DNA of 31,559 nt from a virus (taxonomy: Duplodnaviria; Caudoviricetes): positions 1 through 31,559 of IMG/VR virus record IMGVR_UViG_3300033109_000098; one strand, 5' to 3'. Both the position numbers and the translations under genes were made by a program. Positions 1,651-23,883 of the stretch are shown here, one piece after another (positions within the stretch are counted from its first letter, which is position 1; every line of letters begins with the position of its first letter). A model generated the notes under the pieces. That model was not told the origin of the DNA and made no database searches. It was given only the letters and a program-made list of their open reading frames with translations.

Positions 1651-1936
1651 AGTCGATCTCCAGGAAACGGTTGTCGGCGTCGTTGAACTTCATTTTCTTG
1701 ATGCGCTTCAGCTCCATGACGAAGAGTCCGTCGGTCGAGGTCAGTGTAAAGGTCGCGTAGTACTCACGATCAGCGTATTTGGTCTCGGTCAGCGGGCTGC
1801 TGATGCCGGTGCCCTTGGCGCTCTTGCCGAGCCCGACCTGGGACAGCACCGGATCGGGGATCGCCGACGGATTGAGTGGATCCCGGGACGCCGGCGCCTT
1901 GGCCAGCCGCTGAATGTTGTCGCGCGTGTCGGTCAT
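1634..1936 (-). CDS. Small tail-associated protein (100 aa)
   Basis: ATGA-coupled to the upstream 1045-aa gene. GISSPLTE...REYY...STDGLF motif resembles small tail genes in proteobacterial siphophage tail modules. Confidence 0.65.
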   Translation of the reverse strand: MTDTRDNIQRLAKAPASRDPLNPSAIPDPVLSQVGLGKSAKGTGISSPLTETKYADREYYATFTLTSTDGLFVMELKRIKKMKFNDADNRFLEIDFADKP

Positions 1937-4900
1937 GTCTCGATCACCGTGTTCGTCACCAGCGACAGATCGGTATAGACGCCCGCAACGGCCGCCGCGT
2001 CATCGATGCGCGCCCAGAAGGTCACCGCATTGGCCACCCCGCTCAGGATCGTCGTCGCCAGCGCCAAACTGGCGCCCGCGGTGGCGGCAGTCAATCCCGC
2101 CTGACTGGTGGCCAGTTTGATCGCCGTCGCCGGCTCGCCGCTGGCCGGCGCCGAGTCGGACGGCGATACCGCGATCTCATCCACCCCCGGGTTGCTCGAG
2201 GCCTGGATCTTGGTTCGCGTGTCGGTCGGCAGGTCGAGCTGGTAGGCCTGCGCATGATTCACCGTCGCCGGGTTGCGGAAATTCTCGGCCACGCCCGGCA
2301 TCTGGACGCGGAAGCCGTTTACCTTCTGCGCATAGCCAGCGGCCGCGTTGTAGGCAGGGTTGGCCACCGACGTGCTGTCGGTGCCATTGGTGACCGAATA
2401 GGAGGCCGTCGCGCCGACCAGGAAGCCCATCTGCGTGTAGTCGTAGACGTAGTTCGTCACGTTGCCGATATGGGTCAGCAGGTTCGGCAGATCGGTCGAC
2501 CAGGAATCGGTTCCGACATCGAGTGCGGGCTGCGCCGGCGGCGTCAGCGCATCGGGCGTAAGGATCCCGCCGGCGGCAATGCCGGACAGCGCCAATGTGA
2601 TGGTGCTGATCGCCGAACCGGCATCGATGTCGAGCTTGCCCTGGACGCGCGAGATCTTTCCAGACGCCTGCAACGCCGCGGTATTGAGCGTAGCCGCCAT
2701 CGTGAGGTCGGCCTCTGGCAGGCAGGGTACCGAGAACGTCACGGCGGCCTTGCGGTGGCTGGCGTAAATCATCGACTTGGCCATGTCGAGCAGGTTCTGG
2801 ATCGCCGCATCCGACACGGCGCGCGTCATCGTGCCGGCATAGTCGATCTCGCCCGGCGCGTTGAGCGGCACGGTCACGGTGAAATCGGCCTCCCACTGAT
2901 TGGGCGTCCAGTCCGATTGCAACGCTCCGCGCAGGGGCTTTGCCAGAGCACCGTTGGCTGCGATGCTGGTGGGCGCGGTCACAGTCAGGGCATAGCTTTC
3001 GGTCACCGCCTGCGCGTGGCGCTGCGCCAGAGAGGCGGTGAAGTTGGCCACTCCGCTGGTCACCACGTAATAGCCCGATGGGCTGGCCACCGCAATGTGT
3101 GCCGGCGGGCTGCCGAACGATTGATACAGCACTTTCCAGCCGCTTCCGGCCAGCGCCGACTCGATCTCATCCTGACTCGGATACTGGTAGCTCGACTGCC
3201 ATGCCTCGGCCGTGTAGGCCGACTTGCTCCAGCCGATCGATGCCTGGCGCTGCCGGCAGCGGTAGTATCGGTATTCGAAGGCGATGTCGACCTGGTTCAC
3301 GATCTGGTTGCGCTTGGGCAGGTCGATCGAGGGGCTGGCGTCGAGCACGTCTGCCTCGGTGAAGGTGCGCCACACCGCCAGGCCATTCCATTCCGTGACG
3401 CGTGGACCCGACATCGGACCGCTGTCGAGCGAGGCCGTGCGCGAGGACATGCGGGCCTGTGCATAGGCCCAGCGCTCGCCGATCGCGCCCGACACCGCCT
3501 CCGAATAGGTGCCACCGCACAAGGCATCGATGCTGGCCACCGGCAGGGCCGCCACGCGGTTCTGAAGATCCGAGGTGCAGGTAAATCCGACCGTGCGCTT
3601 GACCGGGTCGAAGGTGGCCACGTCGACCACGCCGGTGAACACCCGGGTATGCATCGACAAGGCGCCCACCAGGCGCACCACGTCGATCGACACCTCTTGC
3701 CCGGTCCAGGTGGTCGGGCTCACCGATCCGGCCGCCGGCCGCAGCGTGAAATCGGCGACGCGTGAGGCGCCCTCCTCCGCATCCCAGCTGATGGTGCCGG
3801 TCAGATTCGCCGACACGTCGACACCGCCCAGCATGACCTGCGCCGTCCAGGTGGTCGTCTCGAGCGTGTTGAGCACATTGATCGACACCGGCGCGCTGAT
3901 GCTGCCCGTATCGGCCACGCTGACGGCGATCGGCGCGCTAATGCTGCCGCTCGGGTTGGATACAGTGACGGTGATCGGCGCGGATACCGCCTCGGCGATG
4001 ACGCTGTAGACCAGCTGCGCGGTATCGTTTGATACCTCCAGTGTCTTGATGCCCGCCGGAAGCGTGATACTCCAGGTCGTCTCGAGGTTCTGCACCGTGA
4101 GCGACGAAATATTGCCATTGCCGAACGAAACCGGCGTGTTTCCGCAGACATAGATCGAGCCGTTGATCTTTTGCAGGATGACGGCCGTTTCAGGCGCATG
4201 CACGGCGGACCAGTCGGTATCCGTGCCGATCTGGATCAAGGTTGCGGATGATGCCGTATTGCCCTGCCCCAGCTGGTATGATCCGCCGTCGCCAGCGGCC
4301 CATACCGTTCCGGTCGTCTTGAGCGCATAGCTATTGAAAGAACTCGCCGCAACTTTCGACCAGTTCGTGTCCGTCCCGACCTGTCGCGGCGAAGTCGAGG
4401 TCGTCGAGGATCCATCACCCTGCTGGCCATAGGTATTGCCACCCCAGCCATAGAGCGTACCATTGGCCAGCACCGCCATCGTGTGCGACAGCGATAGCGA
4501 CAGATCGGAGACGACCGCTGGCAGCGTGATCGCCTGCGGCGTCAGATAATGGGTGGTCGTCGTCCCGAGACCGAGCAGGCCATTCGTGCCGTTGAATCCC
4601 CAGCCATACAGCACATTCGAGGTATCGAGCGCGAACGCGCGCACCGCGCTGTCGTCGCAATACAGCTTGGAAAAGCTGTGGACAAAGGCGATCTGCGTCA
4701 GCGTCGTGATCGGGCTGGTCGTGTTGTTCTGCGCGCACTGCCCATGATTGTTGAGGCCGCACGCATAGATATTGCCATTGGTCTTGAGCGCGATCGTGAA
4801 ACCGTTGCCGACCGCTACGTCGGCCCAATCGGTATCGATTCCAATCTGCGTCCAGGCCGAATAGCTCGCATTCGGAAGGCCCAGCTGTTTGGAGCTGTTG

Positions 4901-5070
4901 TCGCCCACGCCCCAAAGTGTACCGTCCGCCATGATACCTACCGCGAACCCCTGCCCAATCTTGATTTTCAGCCAGGTTCCCGGGATCTGCGCATAGGTGT
5001 AATGCGCGACGGAATCCCCCAGCCCGAATTCCCCGTTGGTGTTCGCCCCGGTTGCGTAGATCGTCGCCAT
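1933..5070 (-). CDS. Tail tip/hub protein with N-terminal RCC1/BLIP-II-like beta-propeller (1045 aa)
   Basis: First ~350 aa are ~50-aa repeats (W..I..G..F...I..DGTLW..G.N..GQLG). The central region (LGGVDVSANLTG...RVFTGVVD) resembles siphophage hub proteins. Lies downstream of the tape measure and distal tail genes. Confidence 0.75.
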   Translation of the reverse strand: MATIYATGANTNGEFGLGDSVAHYTYAQIPGTWLKIKIGQGFAVGIMADGTLWGVGDNSSKQLGLPNASYSAWTQIGIDTDWADVAVGNGFTIALKTNGNIYACGLNNHGQCAQNNTTSPITTLTQIAFVHSFSKLYCDDSAVRAFALDTSNVLYGWGFNGTNGLLGLGTTTTHYLTPQAITLPAVVSDLSLSLSHTMAVLANGTLYGWGGNTYGQQGDGSSTTSTSPRQVGTDTNWSKVAASSFNSYALKTTGTVWAAGDGGSYQLGQGNTASSATLIQIGTDTDWSAVHAPETAVILQKINGSIYVCGNTPVSFGNGNISSLTVQNLETTWSITLPAGIKTLEVSNDTAQLVYSVIAEAVSAPITVTVSNPSGSISAPIAVSVADTGSISAPVSINVLNTLETTTWTAQVMLGGVDVSANLTGTISWDAEEGASRVADFTLRPAAGSVSPTTWTGQEVSIDVVRLVGALSMHTRVFTGVVDVATFDPVKRTVGFTCTSDLQNRVAALPVASIDALCGGTYSEAVSGAIGERWAYAQARMSSRTASLDSGPMSGPRVTEWNGLAVWRTFTEADVLDASPSIDLPKRNQIVNQVDIAFEYRYYRCRQRQASIGWSKSAYTAEAWQSSYQYPSQDEIESALAGSGWKVLYQSFGSPPAHIAVASPSGYYVVTSGVANFTASLAQRHAQAVTESYALTVTAPTSIAANGALAKPLRGALQSDWTPNQWEADFTVTVPLNAPGEIDYAGTMTRAVSDAAIQNLLDMAKSMIYASHRKAAVTFSVPCLPEADLTMAATLNTAALQASGKISRVQGKLDIDAGSAISTITLALSGIAAGGILTPDALTPPAQPALDVGTDSWSTDLPNLLTHIGNVTNYVYDYTQMGFLVGATASYSVTNGTDSTSVANPAYNAAAGYAQKVNGFRVQMPGVAENFRNPATVNHAQAYQLDLPTDTRTKIQASSNPGVDEIAVSPSDSAPASGEPATAIKLATSQAGLTAATAGASLALATTILSGVANAVTFWARIDDAAAVAGVYTDLSLVTNTVIET

Positions 5071-10940: not shown

Positions 10941-10990
10941 GCGCGGCGCTCCTGGTCAGCGGTTTGGATGGGTTGCGAGAAGATCTTCAT
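10937..10990 (-). CDS. Putative 17-aa leaderless uORF MKIFSQPIQTADQERRA
   Basis: ATG at the edge of the duplicated promoter element. Its TGA overlaps the ATG of the head-tail gene (ATGA). Confidence 0.35.
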   Translation of the reverse strand: MKIFSQPIQTADQERRA

Positions 10991-11041
10991 GCCTGCCAGC
11001 GTGGCAGGCATCGTGTGCAATTTTTAGGAAAAAAATTGCAG
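10988..11041 (-). promoter_or_regulatory. Late promoter element copy 1 (activator dyad plus -10 inside a hairpin)
   Basis: 50/54 identical to 16554-16607. Dyad TGCAATTTTT-N5-AAAAATTGCA (11016-11040) and inverted repeat ATGCCTGCCA-GCG-TGGCAGGCAT. Confidence 0.75.
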
Positions 11042-15992: not shown

Positions 15993-16556
15993 TCAGAACC
16001 TCACCACGACGCGGCCGGGGGAGACGCCATTCAGCAAGGCCTGGGCGACGTTCTCTTTCTGTACCTCACGCTCGTAATGCGTGATCGCGTCTTTCAGTTC
16101 CTGCATGCTGCGGAATGTGGTGCTGCGGCCGTCGACCGAGGTCGACAGCACGGTGATCGTCGAGTCGGCCACCATGCTGGCCAGCGCAGTGCGCAGGTTG
16201 GCCAGCGAGATCATGTTGGCGCTGCGGCCGTCGAAGTTGGCGGCCTGGGTGAGATCCGGCAGGATCTTGATCGGGTTCGATTCGAGCGTGGCGCGATCGC
16301 CGGTGCTGGTGTTTTCGACGTAGCCGACCAGCGTGGCATCGCCGGCCACATAGGCGGCGGTGTCGGTGGACTTGAGGTCGACGGTATGCAGCGTGCCGAC
16401 GCCGGTCGAGGTGATGGCGACGGCGGCGCCCGAGGCGTACAACAGCCGATACTTCAGCGCCCAGCCATCGGCGGCGGAAAACTCGGGCAGCTCGCGCTGC
16501 CAAGTGACGCTGTCACCCGCGCGGATCGCACTCGGCTCGGTTGTCTGGATTCCCAT
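15993..16556 (-). CDS. gpW-like head completion protein with N-terminal extension (187 aa)
   Basis: C-terminal SVDGRSTTFRSMQELKDAI motif. EPSAIRAGDSVTW N-terminus. Directly precedes the portal. ATG 16556 sits at the edge of promoter copy 2. Confidence 0.75.
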   Translation of the reverse strand: MGIQTTEPSAIRAGDSVTWQRELPEFSAADGWALKYRLLYASGAAVAITSTGVGTLHTVDLKSTDTAAYVAGDATLVGYVENTSTGDRATLESNPIKILPDLTQAANFDGRSANMISLANLRTALASMVADSTITVLSTSVDGRSTTFRSMQELKDAITHYEREVQKENVAQALLNGVSPGRVVVRF

Positions 16557-16607
16557 GCCTGCCAGCGTGGCAGGATGGGTGTGCAATTTTTAGGAAAAAA
16601 ATTGCAG
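16554..16607 (-). promoter_or_regulatory. Late promoter element copy 2
   Basis: 50/54 identical to 10988-11041. Dyad at 16582-16606. -10-like CACGCT 7 nt before ATG. Confidence 0.75.
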
Positions 16608-16630: not shown

Positions 16631-16679
16631 CGTCAATATCCGATAGCACACCTGCGCAGGTGTCTATTGCTTGTTGGGC
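16631..16679 (+). other. Short attC-like hairpin (cassette insertion site)
   Basis: CGTCAAT-N5-ATAG[C]ACACCTGC/GCAGGTGTCTAT-N5-GTTGGGC: a stem with one extrahelical C, ending in a GTTRRRY box. The R'' box is degenerate. Confidence 0.55.
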
Positions 16680-16897
16680 GTCATGTCTTGCCGCAACCGA
16701 AACACCTCAATCGGGTAAGCGTTGTCACGCTCCGCCGCCATGAAGTGCGCCCCGATGTTGCAGATTCTCCCGCGCTGGTCAACGCAGATCGTGTGTTCTG
16801 CCCGTACTTCGTGGAAGCGCCAGATTCGCTGGGCCTTGTTAATCCAGTCCTGTTTTGAGCGAAACTCAAACAGCTTCTCTCCGTGCTCAATCTGCAT
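16664..16897 (-). CDS. Hypothetical cassette protein (77 aa)
   Basis: SD GGAGAG before ATG. Stop TAG lies just outside the cassette, in the left hairpin. Confidence 0.75.
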   Translation of the reverse strand: MQIEHGEKLFEFRSKQDWINKAQRIWRFHEVRAEHTICVDQRGRICNIGAHFMAAERDNAYPIEVFRLRQDMTPNKQ

Positions 16898-16984
16898 GCC
16901 GTTCTCTCCAGGGCGTCACGCCCAACAAGTCCATCGAGAGGGAAGCTCAACAGCTACGCTGTTTCGCTCCCCTCATGTCGTTCG
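16674..16984 (+). mobile_element. Integron-type gene cassette (311 bp) with inverted ORF
   Basis: Bounded by G|TTGGGCGT (16673) and G|TTACAT (16984). The left end is a 9-bp perfect complement of ACGCCCAAC at the attC R'' box. Confidence 0.8.
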
Positions 16985-16990
16985 TTACAT
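16920..16990 (+). other. attC: Canonical integron attC site (71 bp)
   Basis: R'' GCCCAAC, 5-nt spacer, CAT[C]GAG[A]GGGA pairing with TCCCCTCATG, AACAGC-TAC-GCTGTT tip, 6-nt spacer, R'-like GTTACAT (one mismatch to GTTRRRY). Confidence 0.85.
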
Positions 16991-17305
16991 CCACATGGCA
17001 TCGTCGATCGCGCGGTGCCCACACTTCACGCAGACCGCCGATCCCCCGCCGCAGCCGGTCGCAGCATCGACGATCTCGACCCATTTCGAATAGTCGTGAT
17101 CGGTTCCGTCCGGGCAGGTCGGCCGGGGCCCGCACTGGAAGATGGCCAGCGCCTCGGCAGGCTCCTCGTCTTCCGGCGCTTCATCCTCGAGGTCGAAAAC
17201 GGCACCGCATGCGGCGCAGCGTTGCAGGCGCTCGTCGCCACCAGGCAGATCGTCGCCCTCGTCATAGAGATAGGTCGTTTTGCATCCGCATTTTGGGCAG
17301 GCCAT
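16985..17305 (-). CDS. Cys-rich Zn-finger-like hypothetical protein (106 aa)
   Basis: CPKCGC, CAAC and CVKC motifs. SD GAGGA. Stop TAA lies within the attC R' box. Confidence 0.75.
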   Translation of the reverse strand: MACPKCGCKTTYLYDEGDDLPGGDERLQRCAACGAVFDLEDEAPEDEEPAEALAIFQCGPRPTCPDGTDHDYSKWVEIVDAATGCGGGSAVCVKCGHRAIDDAMWM

Positions 17306-17313
17306 TTCGTTCC

Positions 17314-17529
17314 TCAGTTTCCGCCTAGCATTGCGCCGCAGGCGTTGCAGCCGTATGCCAGGTTATCGTCCCAAAGATTGTTGCTCCCGCAGTGCGGGCA
17401 GCGCCCCGTGAATGCACCGGTCGGCTCATTGTTCGGGTTATTCTGTCGTCTCAACCGTGCCAGCGCTTGCGGATCATCGCGGGGGATATTTGTCTTGAAA
17501 GGGCTACGGTTTTGCTCTGTGTAGGCCAT
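17314..17529 (-). CDS. Zn-ribbon hypothetical protein (71 aa)
   Basis: CPHC...CNAC motifs. SD AAGGAG. Confidence 0.75.
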   Translation of the reverse strand: MAYTEQNRSPFKTNIPRDDPQALARLRRQNNPNNEPTGAFTGRCPHCGSNNLWDDNLAYGCNACGAMLGGN

Positions 17530-17583
17530 CGTTTTCTCCTTGGCTTGGGATCGGGCCGGAAAAATCCGCCCTTCGATGAGGGA

Positions 17584-17823
17584 TTAGCAGGAACGGCTCA
17601 TCGGTCCGCCAGTGTTCTTCGGTACGGCGCGCACGCCATCACCGATAACATCAAGGTCATCCTCATCAACCCACCAGCCATCCGGCACTTTCTTATCATC
17701 ACCCACGGGCGGCTGGATGTAATAGCGATTGCAGCCATAGAGGTTTTCACTTCTTGCCGTCACCACACCGCGCAATTTGGTCACTTTCGCCTGTACTTCT
17801 TTCCCAAGCTCACACTTAAACAT
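17584..17823 (-). CDS. Small phage hypothetical protein (79 aa)
   Basis: SD AGGAGA before ATG 17823. GVVTARSENLYGCNRYYIQP...WWVDE motif, a recurrent phage ORF type. Confidence 0.75.
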   Translation of the reverse strand: MFKCELGKEVQAKVTKLRGVVTARSENLYGCNRYYIQPPVGDDKKVPDGWWVDEDDLDVIGDGVRAVPKNTGGPMSRSC

Positions 17824-17907
17824 CCTGTTTCTCCTATAAGTAAAAAATCCTGCAAACATTTCCAGCATGTCGCGGCTGGACATAATTCCACGTTACTTTT
17901 TCATCGT

Positions 17908-18171
17908 TCACCCTTTCCGTAGTCGCTTAAGTTGATAGGCCCGGCTGACGCTGATCCCGAGGACCTTGGAGATCTTTTGCGCGTCGGCCTCGTCGCCGAG
18001 CTCGGCCAGGGCCTCGAGGTGGCTGCGCTTTTTCATGACGGGCACATAGGGCCGCGTGCCGCCGAAGGTGCCGCACAGCACGCGCTTGAACTTTTCCCAC
18101 TGGTCGTCGGGGATCTCGCGCAGCTCGGCGCGGATGGCGGCGAGCATGGCGAGCAGGTTATCTTCGGCCAT
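17908..18171 (-). CDS. Mor/C-family transcription activator (87 aa)
   Basis: FGGTRPYVP motif followed by a C-terminal HTH (ISKVLGISVSRAYQL), as in Mu Mor/C. Overlaps the terL end. Confidence 0.75.
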   Translation of the reverse strand: MAEDNLLAMLAAIRAELREIPDDQWEKFKRVLCGTFGGTRPYVPVMKKRSHLEALAELGDEADAQKISKVLGISVSRAYQLKRLRKG

Positions 18172-21322: not shown

Positions 21323-22627
21323 TCACGCACGTCCATCGGCTTTTATATCGTTGAATGTGCGACCGTCACCGTCGAGGCTGCCACTGCATCCGGTGAAGTC
21401 CTGCCAGCGCCTGACAATCACGTCGACATATGTTGGCTCGAGCTCGATAAGGCGGGCACAACGTCCCGTCATCGTCGCCGCGATCAAGGTCGATCCTGAA
21501 CCGCCGAAGAAATCTAATACCGTCGCGCCAGGCGCGCTGCTGTTCTGGATCGAACGGTTTATTAGATCGACTGGCTTCATGGTCGGATGGAGATCGTTCT
21601 TCTTCGTCCTATCGATCTCCCACAGCGACGGCAGATCAACCTCCCATACATCGACCTCGCCCTTCTTGCCATACCATGGATGCTCCGTAGTCCAGCCATA
21701 AAAGATCGGCTGGTAGTCATCCGCCCATCCCATGAACATCGGCTCGTAGAAAGACTTGTAGTCGCTGTTCGATAGTGTGAGGTGATTCTTTTTCCAGATA
21801 ATCAGGTTGCGCGTCTTAAGCCCATTGGCGCGCAGTGCGTCAAACATCCAGTCGATCCCCAACCGATAGAACGTTATGTACCAGGCCCCACCGCACCAGG
21901 CGCGCAGCTGAGCAGTGAAGTCCAATAGGAATTTCTCGCCAGCACTTTTCGACAGCTTGTCGTTTGCGATCGGCTTGTGCTTCGACTTCGTGCTCCCGTC
22001 GCTACCGATGGCGCCGGTGAAGTCCATGAGGTACGGAGGGTCTGTCCAAACGAGATCCGCCCGCTTTCCTTCCATGAGGCGGGAAACGTCTTCCAGCGAG
22101 AGGCTGTTCCCACACATTACACGGTGATCTCCCAGTAGCCAGACGTCACCAGGTTTGCTCACTGGGTCTGGATGCGGATCCGGAACCGCGTTGGGATCCG
22201 TGTTCCCGAGCATTCCGGCGGCAGCCTGAAGCGCTTTGGCGTCTGCCTCGCTGAACCCGGTCAAGCCAACGTCGAACCCAGCGTCAAGCAGCTCGCGCAG
22301 CTCGACCCGGAGCATCTCGTCATCCCACCCACCCTGCTCGCCGAGCTTGTTATCTGCGATCACGTAGGCACGCATCTGCGCGTCGCTTAGATGACTGACA
22401 TCGATGGTCGGTACCATATCGAGGCCGAGCTTGCGTGCGGCCATCACTCTTCCATGGCCCGCCACGATGGTCCGATCCCCACGAACTAGTACCGGATTCG
22501 TGAATCCGAACTCGCGCATCGAGGCTGCTATCGCAGCCACCTGATCCTCTGAGTGCGTACGCGAGTTGCGTGCGTATGGCAGCAACTCTTCCGTAGCGAC
22601 CAATCTCACGTCATTAGCCAAAAACAT
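21323..22627 (-). CDS. ParB-like N-domain fused to amino (N6A/N4C) DNA methyltransferase (434 aa)
   Basis: PYARNSRTH...FGFTNP...AGHGR...ADNK ParB/Srx fold, plus DPPY, HPTMKP and DFFGGSGST methyltransferase motifs. Confidence 0.92.
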   Translation of the reverse strand: MFLANDVRLVATEELLPYARNSRTHSEDQVAAIAASMREFGFTNPVLVRGDRTIVAGHGRVMAARKLGLDMVPTIDVSHLSDAQMRAYVIADNKLGEQGGWDDEMLRVELRELLDAGFDVGLTGFSEADAKALQAAAGMLGNTDPNAVPDPHPDPVSKPGDVWLLGDHRVMCGNSLSLEDVSRLMEGKRADLVWTDPPYLMDFTGAIGSDGSTKSKHKPIANDKLSKSAGEKFLLDFTAQLRAWCGGAWYITFYRLGIDWMFDALRANGLKTRNLIIWKKNHLTLSNSDYKSFYEPMFMGWADDYQPIFYGWTTEHPWYGKKGEVDVWEVDLPSLWEIDRTKKNDLHPTMKPVDLINRSIQNSSAPGATVLDFFGGSGSTLIAATMTGRCARLIELEPTYVDVIVRRWQDFTGCSGSLDGDGRTFNDIKADGRA

Positions 22628-23626: not shown

Positions 23627-23883
23627 AGGTTGGACGGTAGGACGGCAGGTTGGACGGCTGAAACCCGCGCAAATACTGGATTTGTCCAACCTTCTAACCT
23701 CGTCCAACCTAAAAACGTGATGGCACATGCGCGCGTGTGCGTGCGTGCGCATGCGTGCCTGCGCGCCTACGTGTGTGCGTGCGGGAAAAGGTTGGACGAG
23801 GTTGGACGGTTGGACGGATGCCCTATCCATGCGGGTTTGCGCCGTCCAACCTTTTCCGGGCCGTCCAACCTCAGGTTGGACGG
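23627..23883. repeat. Iteron-like repeat array / putative replication origin
   Basis: About 12 copies of (A)GGTTGGACG(G) in both orientations around an alternating purine-pyrimidine tract, directly downstream of the primase-helicase. Confidence 0.8.

Follow-up and report, generated by a model that had tools for sequence, protein, structure and literature searches.

Bottom-strand selection at integron attC sites is described in the available text of Nivina 2016 (PMC5027507), where the strand choice is presented as what orients cassette genes so that they face away from attI and can be read from the Pc promoter. Phage CALINs and integrons are also known: the accessible part of Qi 2023 (PMC9892861) reports attC sites in phage genomes without intI, and IntI1 recombined five of the six sites tested. 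Phage attC arrays are thus already published (Qi 2023), and the reversed layout described below appears, at the sequence level, to be a variant of the integron system.

The window analysed here (the whole stretch of 31,559 nucleotides) is an entire record, a temperate lambda-like provirus that is about 80% complete, and its named homologues (Azonexus, an Azospira plasmid) suggest Rhodocyclales. With a probability of roughly 85%, it contains a one-cassette integron-type array consisting of an attI-like site, a 311-bp cassette and an attC, which would most likely have been built by IntI and carries its gene reversed (Table 1). The observed basis of this reading is the presence of two sites, their spacing, the complementary cassette ends, the swaps among relatives and the same layout beside intact intI genes elsewhere.

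The attC has the same R''-5 nt-L''-stem-L'-6 nt-R' layout as the class 1 aac(6')-Ib attC (L042, plasmid NZ_CP151544), with two unpaired bases on one arm. In contrast to the aac(6')-Ib cassette, the gene in the window lies on the bottom strand, starts behind the hairpin and takes its stop from the neighbouring site, and its expression would run towards attI and not from the Pc promoter. The phage arrays in the accessible part of Qi 2023 (PMC9892861) likewise contain attC sites in phages without intI. However, the TJE1 array used there is canonical on re-scanning, unlike the window, and two attC sites were demanded in that work, whereas the window has one. Neither uniformly inverted genes nor a stop-supplying attI is described in its main text and part of its supplement, and no attC sites were called in MW202573 or MN013086. 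Neither a uniformly reversed layout nor a stop-supplying attI was found in the openly accessible papers searched. The attI sites of Vibrio chromosomal integrons (L039, L034) share their core with the window site and stand between intI and the first cassette. In contrast, the window site is followed not by intI but by a short inverted repeat, with the head operon about 90 bp further on. In attG insertion, as described in the available portion of Loot et al. (10.1101/2022.09.11.507474), a cassette likewise sits outside the bacterial integron platform, but the target in the window is a recurring array-end site and not a random GWT.

Table 1. Positions of the cassette locus and its neighbours in the window
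Feature	Position	Strand	Remark
attC	16920..16990	+ (top strand); bottom strand is the coding strand of phage genes	predicted crossover between G16984 and T16985
attI-like core AAC-N6-TAGAC (coding strand)	16662..16675	-	predicted crossover between G16673 and T16674; TAG is the stop of the 77-aa ORF
Short inverted repeat behind the attI-like core	16643..16667	.	fold not significant alone, z -0.36
Cassette unit, 311 bp	16674..16984	+	GC 56.9% versus 63.7% for the window
77-aa cassette ORF	16664..16897	-	no named family
Small HTH-like gene after terL	17908..18162	-	upstream slot border; weak PHROG match
Two further accessory ORFs (71 aa, 99 aa), same variable slot	17314..17883	-	no attC called
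106-aa zinc-ribbon ORF, upstream of cassette	16985..17305	-	TAA inside right R box
Head-tail joining gene	15993..16556	-	downstream slot border

The attC site

The left arm of the attC consists of R'' GCCCAAC (16920-16926), a 5-nt spacer, CAT (16932-34), C16935, GAG, A16939 and GGGA (16940-43). It is followed by the inner AACAGC/GCTGTT stem, TCCCCTCATG, a 6-nt spacer and R' GTTACAT (16984-16990). The conserved AAC and GTT are present in the R boxes, and the L boxes lie at 5 and 5-8 nt. When the letters were read again, every position given for these parts in an earlier note on this DNA was correct. The two bulges drawn in that note were upheld in part. By complementarity, C16935 and A16939 (G and T on the bottom strand) stay unpaired as extrahelical bases, but the minimum-energy fold retains the inner stems and omits the textbook two-bulge drawing.

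A rule scanner found one site in the window, whereas 40 dinucleotide shuffles averaged 0.05 sites and none of the 40 had a site once the bulge rules were included. The bottom strand folds at -13.9 kcal/mol (z -3.45), a value equalled by none of 200 shuffles, and the top strand at -11.5. The covariance-model check proposed in the earlier note was carried out with a model of our own (not IntegronFinder's), for which 15 ordinary attC sites were taken from TJE1, Shewanella phage M16-3 and class 1 integrons and the aac(6')-Ib site was held out. With filters off, the sole match in the window was 16920-16990 on the plus strand, with 36.1 bits and a rough E of about 3e-6. The held-out aac(6')-Ib attC scored lower with the same model (28.3 bits), and the two sites are identical in 49 of 72 columns. 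This match and this identity indicate an attC of known bacterial type with the phage genes on its bottom strand. A chance hairpin, to which the modest folding energy could point, has a negligible probability and is refuted by the shuffle controls, the identity to the aac(6')-Ib attC, the covariance-model match and the AAC/GTT found in all 41 viral loci described below. The Qi 2023 rule for a CALIN is at least two attC within 3 kb and no intI, and the window has one attC.

The left boundary and the reversed gene

In the earlier note the left end of the cassette was given as a 9-bp perfect complement of the right end. The 9 bp are correct, with GTTGGGCGT being the perfect complement of ACGCCCAAC, so that the cassette ends are complementary, but there is more than these 9 bp: the left end belongs to a second, different site (16643-16675) with an attI-like AAC-N6-TAGAC sequence. 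The spacing was also confirmed from the letters, with the left GTT at 16673-75 and a G-to-G distance of 311. Like an attI, the site that ends the array has an R box, an L box at a distance of 6-7 nt and no attC fold. A decayed second attC was also considered for the left site and rejected, since there is no second R box in register and no model match, and the site folds like shuffles.

The AAC-N6-TAGAC core together with the inverted repeat was found at 21 viral loci, six of which (five distinct) end reversed arrays with attC upstream only. In these six loci the frame that stops at the TAG is open over 95-202 codons, versus 0-62 codons in the other 15, which have no array and were treated as chance. 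The site in L170 has nearly the sequence of the window's left site. Compared with it, the inverted repeat of the window has one extra base, given which the left site may be decayed, and the window's own form of the repeat had no match in viral contigs. The identical eight bases lie between intI and the first cassette in a Vibrio integron (L039), and a second Vibrio site (L034, V. anguillarum) has AAC-N6-TATAC with one mismatch, both being called attI from their position; attI1 differs from the window site in the L box. Where a phage has its own intI, a related AAC-N6 site closes the array and adjoins intI directly. From its position and the 8-base core of the two Vibrio sites, the left boundary appears to be an attI-like docking site, and the locus would thus be an attI with one cassette. 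No promoter-like site was seen for a Pc promoter from attI into the array, which would read the gene antisense.

The 77-aa ORF is reversed, lies on the strand of the phage operon and borrows its stop from the flank, all as claimed before. Its SD-like GGAG and ATG lie 23 nt behind the attC. The C-terminus reads M-T-P-N up to the crossover and K-Q-stop after it, with the Asn codon being the AAC crossover triplet and the TAG (16664-66) lying outside the cassette, within the attI-like core. The locus is a discrete unit with complementary ends that map to the point between G and TT, as in a gene cassette. However, the ORF is on the bottom strand, whereas in a canonical cassette it is on the top strand, upstream of its own attC. 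The stop codon of the 106-aa ORF (16985-87) lies within the right R box of the attC. The insertion would break no gene, since the stop of this upstream ORF is retained within the R box and attI provides the cassette ORF with Lys-Gln-stop.

In the proposed mechanism, the cassette circle would have folded its attC bottom strand, and IntI would have joined the folded strand to the attI-like site between G and TT. In a model of the excised circle, the junction folds at -22.7 kcal/mol versus -13.9 for the attC. The order of intI, attI and attC is ordinary and only the ORF is flipped. Therefore the hairpin and the ribosome site would travel in front of the gene. Reading of the array would start from the phage operon and proceed in the direction of attI, with the newest cassette last and its stop taken from attI (Asn-x-x-stop). 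Judging from the gene order, the cassette is probably transcribed by the packaging operon.

No match to the 77-aa ORF was found in Pfam, NCBIfam, PHROGs, PADLOC or among INPHARED phages, and there was no usable Atlas match and no convincing PDB sequence match. Its predicted structure (pLDDT 82) is a small alpha/beta fold, for which Foldseek gave nothing at E 0.001 or better. It is probably a non-essential accessory gene. Homologues carry a DM..PN-type junction in 26 of 49 cases, followed by 25 different tails. All 13 near-identical relatives, which form one 90% cluster, end in MTPN (the Pro-Asn junction) with 10 different tails, and this ending was found in 5 of 15 members of another 90% cluster and in none of five in a third. 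An attC was called upstream in 9 of the 28 homologue loci, and wherever an attC is adjacent the gene is reversed. In eight of these nine, the complementary ends span 8-11 bp, with three different sequences; L016 has only three complementary end bases, which counts against the main reading. In 83 cassettes, each delimited by two consecutive attC calls, the ends remain complementary beyond GTT for an average of 4.0 nt versus 1.0 nt in 2000 shuffles, and six or more complementary bases were found in 28 of them versus 1.3 in shuffles. Junction tails, flank pairs and complementary ends all place the variable boundaries of relatives at the GTT/AAC points, as the earlier note had expected. Because the same gene is swapped at these points in relatives, the phages likely run their own mirror-image gene-capture system.

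The family of the 77-aa ORF is also found outside cassettes. Eight of the 28 loci have no AAC junction, five more have AAC but no attC called adjacent, and one member without attC is on an Azospira plasmid. The family is therefore known in two forms, as an ordinary gene of an operon and in cassettes.

Polarity, the variable slot and the integrase among relatives

Viral contigs were searched with a pattern for the inner stem of the window attC type only, in which AAC and GTT were not demanded. The search returned 41 viral loci, and AAC and GTT were at the right distances in all of them. A locus was called reversed when a ribosome site and a start codon were on the bottom strand just behind the hairpin; on this basis, 36 loci are reversed, one is canonical and four are uncalled, and canonical cases may be under-called, since the script missed the canonical control L042. 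Consistently, 54 of 55 model matches in homologue and terL loci are opposite to the strand of the query gene, and the remaining one is a weaker duplicate. These counts bear on the possibility that an ordinary bacterial cassette entered a random GTT (attG-type) site with its gene inverted by chance. IntI does insert at many genomic 5'-GWT-3' sites, according to the available portion of Loot et al. (10.1101/2022.09.11.507474), and the attC type is shared with bacterial cassettes. However, unrelated arrays also end in this left site, the gene is reversed in all homologue loci with an adjacent attC, and 36 of the 37 called viral loci are reversed, so that this explanation is largely refuted and very improbable.

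Seven locus pairs, three of them from one triple, share the R''-side flank, and six of the seven differ right after GTT, while no pair shares the R' side alone. This pattern indicates that the hairpin travels with the gene behind it, which matches the prediction from the bulges. Alternatively, the hairpins could be shared linkers or terminators through whose short homologies genes are exchanged, with no site-specific recombinase involved. The hairpin middles differ even among close ORF copies (L008, L009, L011), and exchange inside hairpins may therefore occur. As an account of the whole pattern this is improbable, because divergence starts one or two bases past GTT, end complementarity co-varies, and intact intI genes adjoin such arrays.

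Long reversed arrays were seen in the metagenome contigs L009 (14 model matches in 7 kb), L016 (nine) and L015. In L101 (4124-4230), L008, L009 and L011, a nearly identical R box and ribosome-site leader stands before unrelated ORFs, and this attC-leader module looks as if it had been recruited to new genes. On an Acinetobacter plasmid (L044 3003-3074, NZ_CP032285), an attC of the same type is in canonical position behind a DM13-domain gene and is adjoined by a short, divergent integrase-like ORF.

The terminase, portal and capsid genes of the window are all on the minus strand (Pfam), and four small minus-strand ORFs lie between the HTH-like gene after terL and the head-tail joining gene. In 27 terL relatives with both border genes, this slot is empty (90 bp or less) in 10 and contains an insert in 17. 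An attC was found in only two of the 17 inserts, L030 (same contig as L048) and L066, which are reversed cassettes carrying other genes; L066 has four attC and is closed by the same attI-like site as the window. In the truncated L101, the upstream border gene is directly followed by an attC. Overall, the slot is a general insertion hot spot, which counts against the main reading, and integron-type capture is one of several routes into it, as most inserts have no attC. The N-terminal family of the 106-aa ORF is frequent in reversed arrays. In the covariance-model scan no attC precedes this ORF, which leaves the outer end of the array unaccounted for and also counts against the main reading. The exact empty allele was not found among relatives; a search with the 106-aa ORF as query gave only the N-terminal family of this ORF. 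One DNA run, possibly the source, yielded a single contig and no excision joint; contigs lose rare variants, so the missing joint is no evidence of absence. Rfam gave no match across the window.

The locus could also be a fossil, a block of attI and cassette acquired whole from the array of a different phage through homologous or illegitimate recombination, on which no integrase would act in this phage at present. The bulk of slot variation without attC, the lack of intI and of an excision joint, the extra base in the left repeat and the 106-aa ORF without an attC before it are all consistent with a fossil, and off-target routes for CALIN uptake are proposed in the accessible part of Qi 2023 (PMC9892861). 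In contrast, the attC is intact and outscores a clinical attC, the ends are complementary over 9 bp, and both flanking stop codons are in place. A fossil is therefore considered unlikely; it would bear on present activity and on the origin of the block here, not on the identity of the element, and is compatible with the cassette origin in the main reading.

Other features were observed in the slot and the window. The head-tail joining gene is preceded by a conserved motif of about 55 bp that occurs again near 11000 (10988-11008 and 16554-16574). This motif is kept in relatives even where the slot is empty, and is a candidate late promoter for the HTH-like regulator. By eye, the slot of L046 contains an apparent tRNA-like sequence and repeat-rich ORFs, and that of L054 an apparent toxin-antitoxin pair. 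Elsewhere in the window there are a long inverted repeat (23684-23815) that contains tandem TCCAACC-type units, closely follows a primase/VapE-like gene and is possibly the replication origin; a ParB-N plus N6/N4 DNA methylase gene (21323-22627) that precedes terS and lies where the GC content is lower; and a 1045-aa tail-region protein with RCC1-like repeats (1933-5070).

The absence of intI from the window, noted earlier, was borne out by a TIGR02249 profile search, which was empty for the contig. Unlike in a complete integron, the head-tail joining gene and not intI follows the attI-like site. When 50 records were tested (49 with reversed sites and one canonical control), three carried IntI above the TIGR02249 cut-off, and IntI was found in one of the eight records that are at least 90% complete. 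One of 30 terL relatives tested (the longer ones of 70 fetched), G056, has IntI. In four phage records, a full IntI lies directly behind an attI-like site of this kind. Three phage IntI were aligned; they are 52-56% identical to IntI1 and keep all six catalytic residues. G056 contains a complete reversed integron (L226 1576-3360) with intI, attI-like site and two reversed attC. G056 and the window are colinear, with 70-80% identity. The integron of G056 is in the early operon beside the prophage integrase, and the equivalent place in the phage of the window lies past the point where the contig ends. The contig being 80% complete, an intI of its own may therefore exist elsewhere in the phage. 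The proposal of a host or trans integrase in the earlier note holds in that trans is the commonest situation (seven of eight near-complete records lack intI), but G056 shows that a phage can have its own. The integrase was probably supplied in trans, by the host or a co-resident phage; that it is encoded in the missing fifth of the genome is less likely.

In L192 (7647-8007), a phage intI ends prematurely, about 100 codons in, where an attC-like site begins to look like a cassette junction that had cut it. Another phage, Virus Rctr41k (L038, KX853513, 4680-10101), encodes a full integron integrase (TIGR02249, 383 bits), behind which stand at least five long attC-like sites. Their polarity is canonical, and ORFs read through some of them; the phage is not listed in the accessible part of Qi 2023.

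A possible mirror-image cassette pool in phages

A wider reading is put forward tentatively, with slightly less than even odds for all its parts jointly. Temperate phages of Betaproteobacteria-like hosts may maintain a separate, mirror-image cassette pool, in which an attC and a ribosome site placed before ordinary accessory genes would turn them into cassettes, with the crossover locked into an Asn codon. Stand-alone attI sites with a built-in stop would lie at several points of the genome, here in the packaging operon, and a phage IntI clade would serve them in cis or in trans. The attC families would be shared with clinical class 1 cassettes.

Single-attC cases like that of the window fall below the two-site rule of the phage survey in Qi 2023, as given in its accessible part. 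The same attC chemistry appears to serve the opposite layout in many phages, which would give them a site-specific route for swapping accessory genes. An ORF family with members in operons and in cassettes, and an attC family shared with a clinical cassette, together offer a handle on the origin of cassettes, which is still an open question. If the mirror-image pool exists, it would be a place where new cassettes are made.
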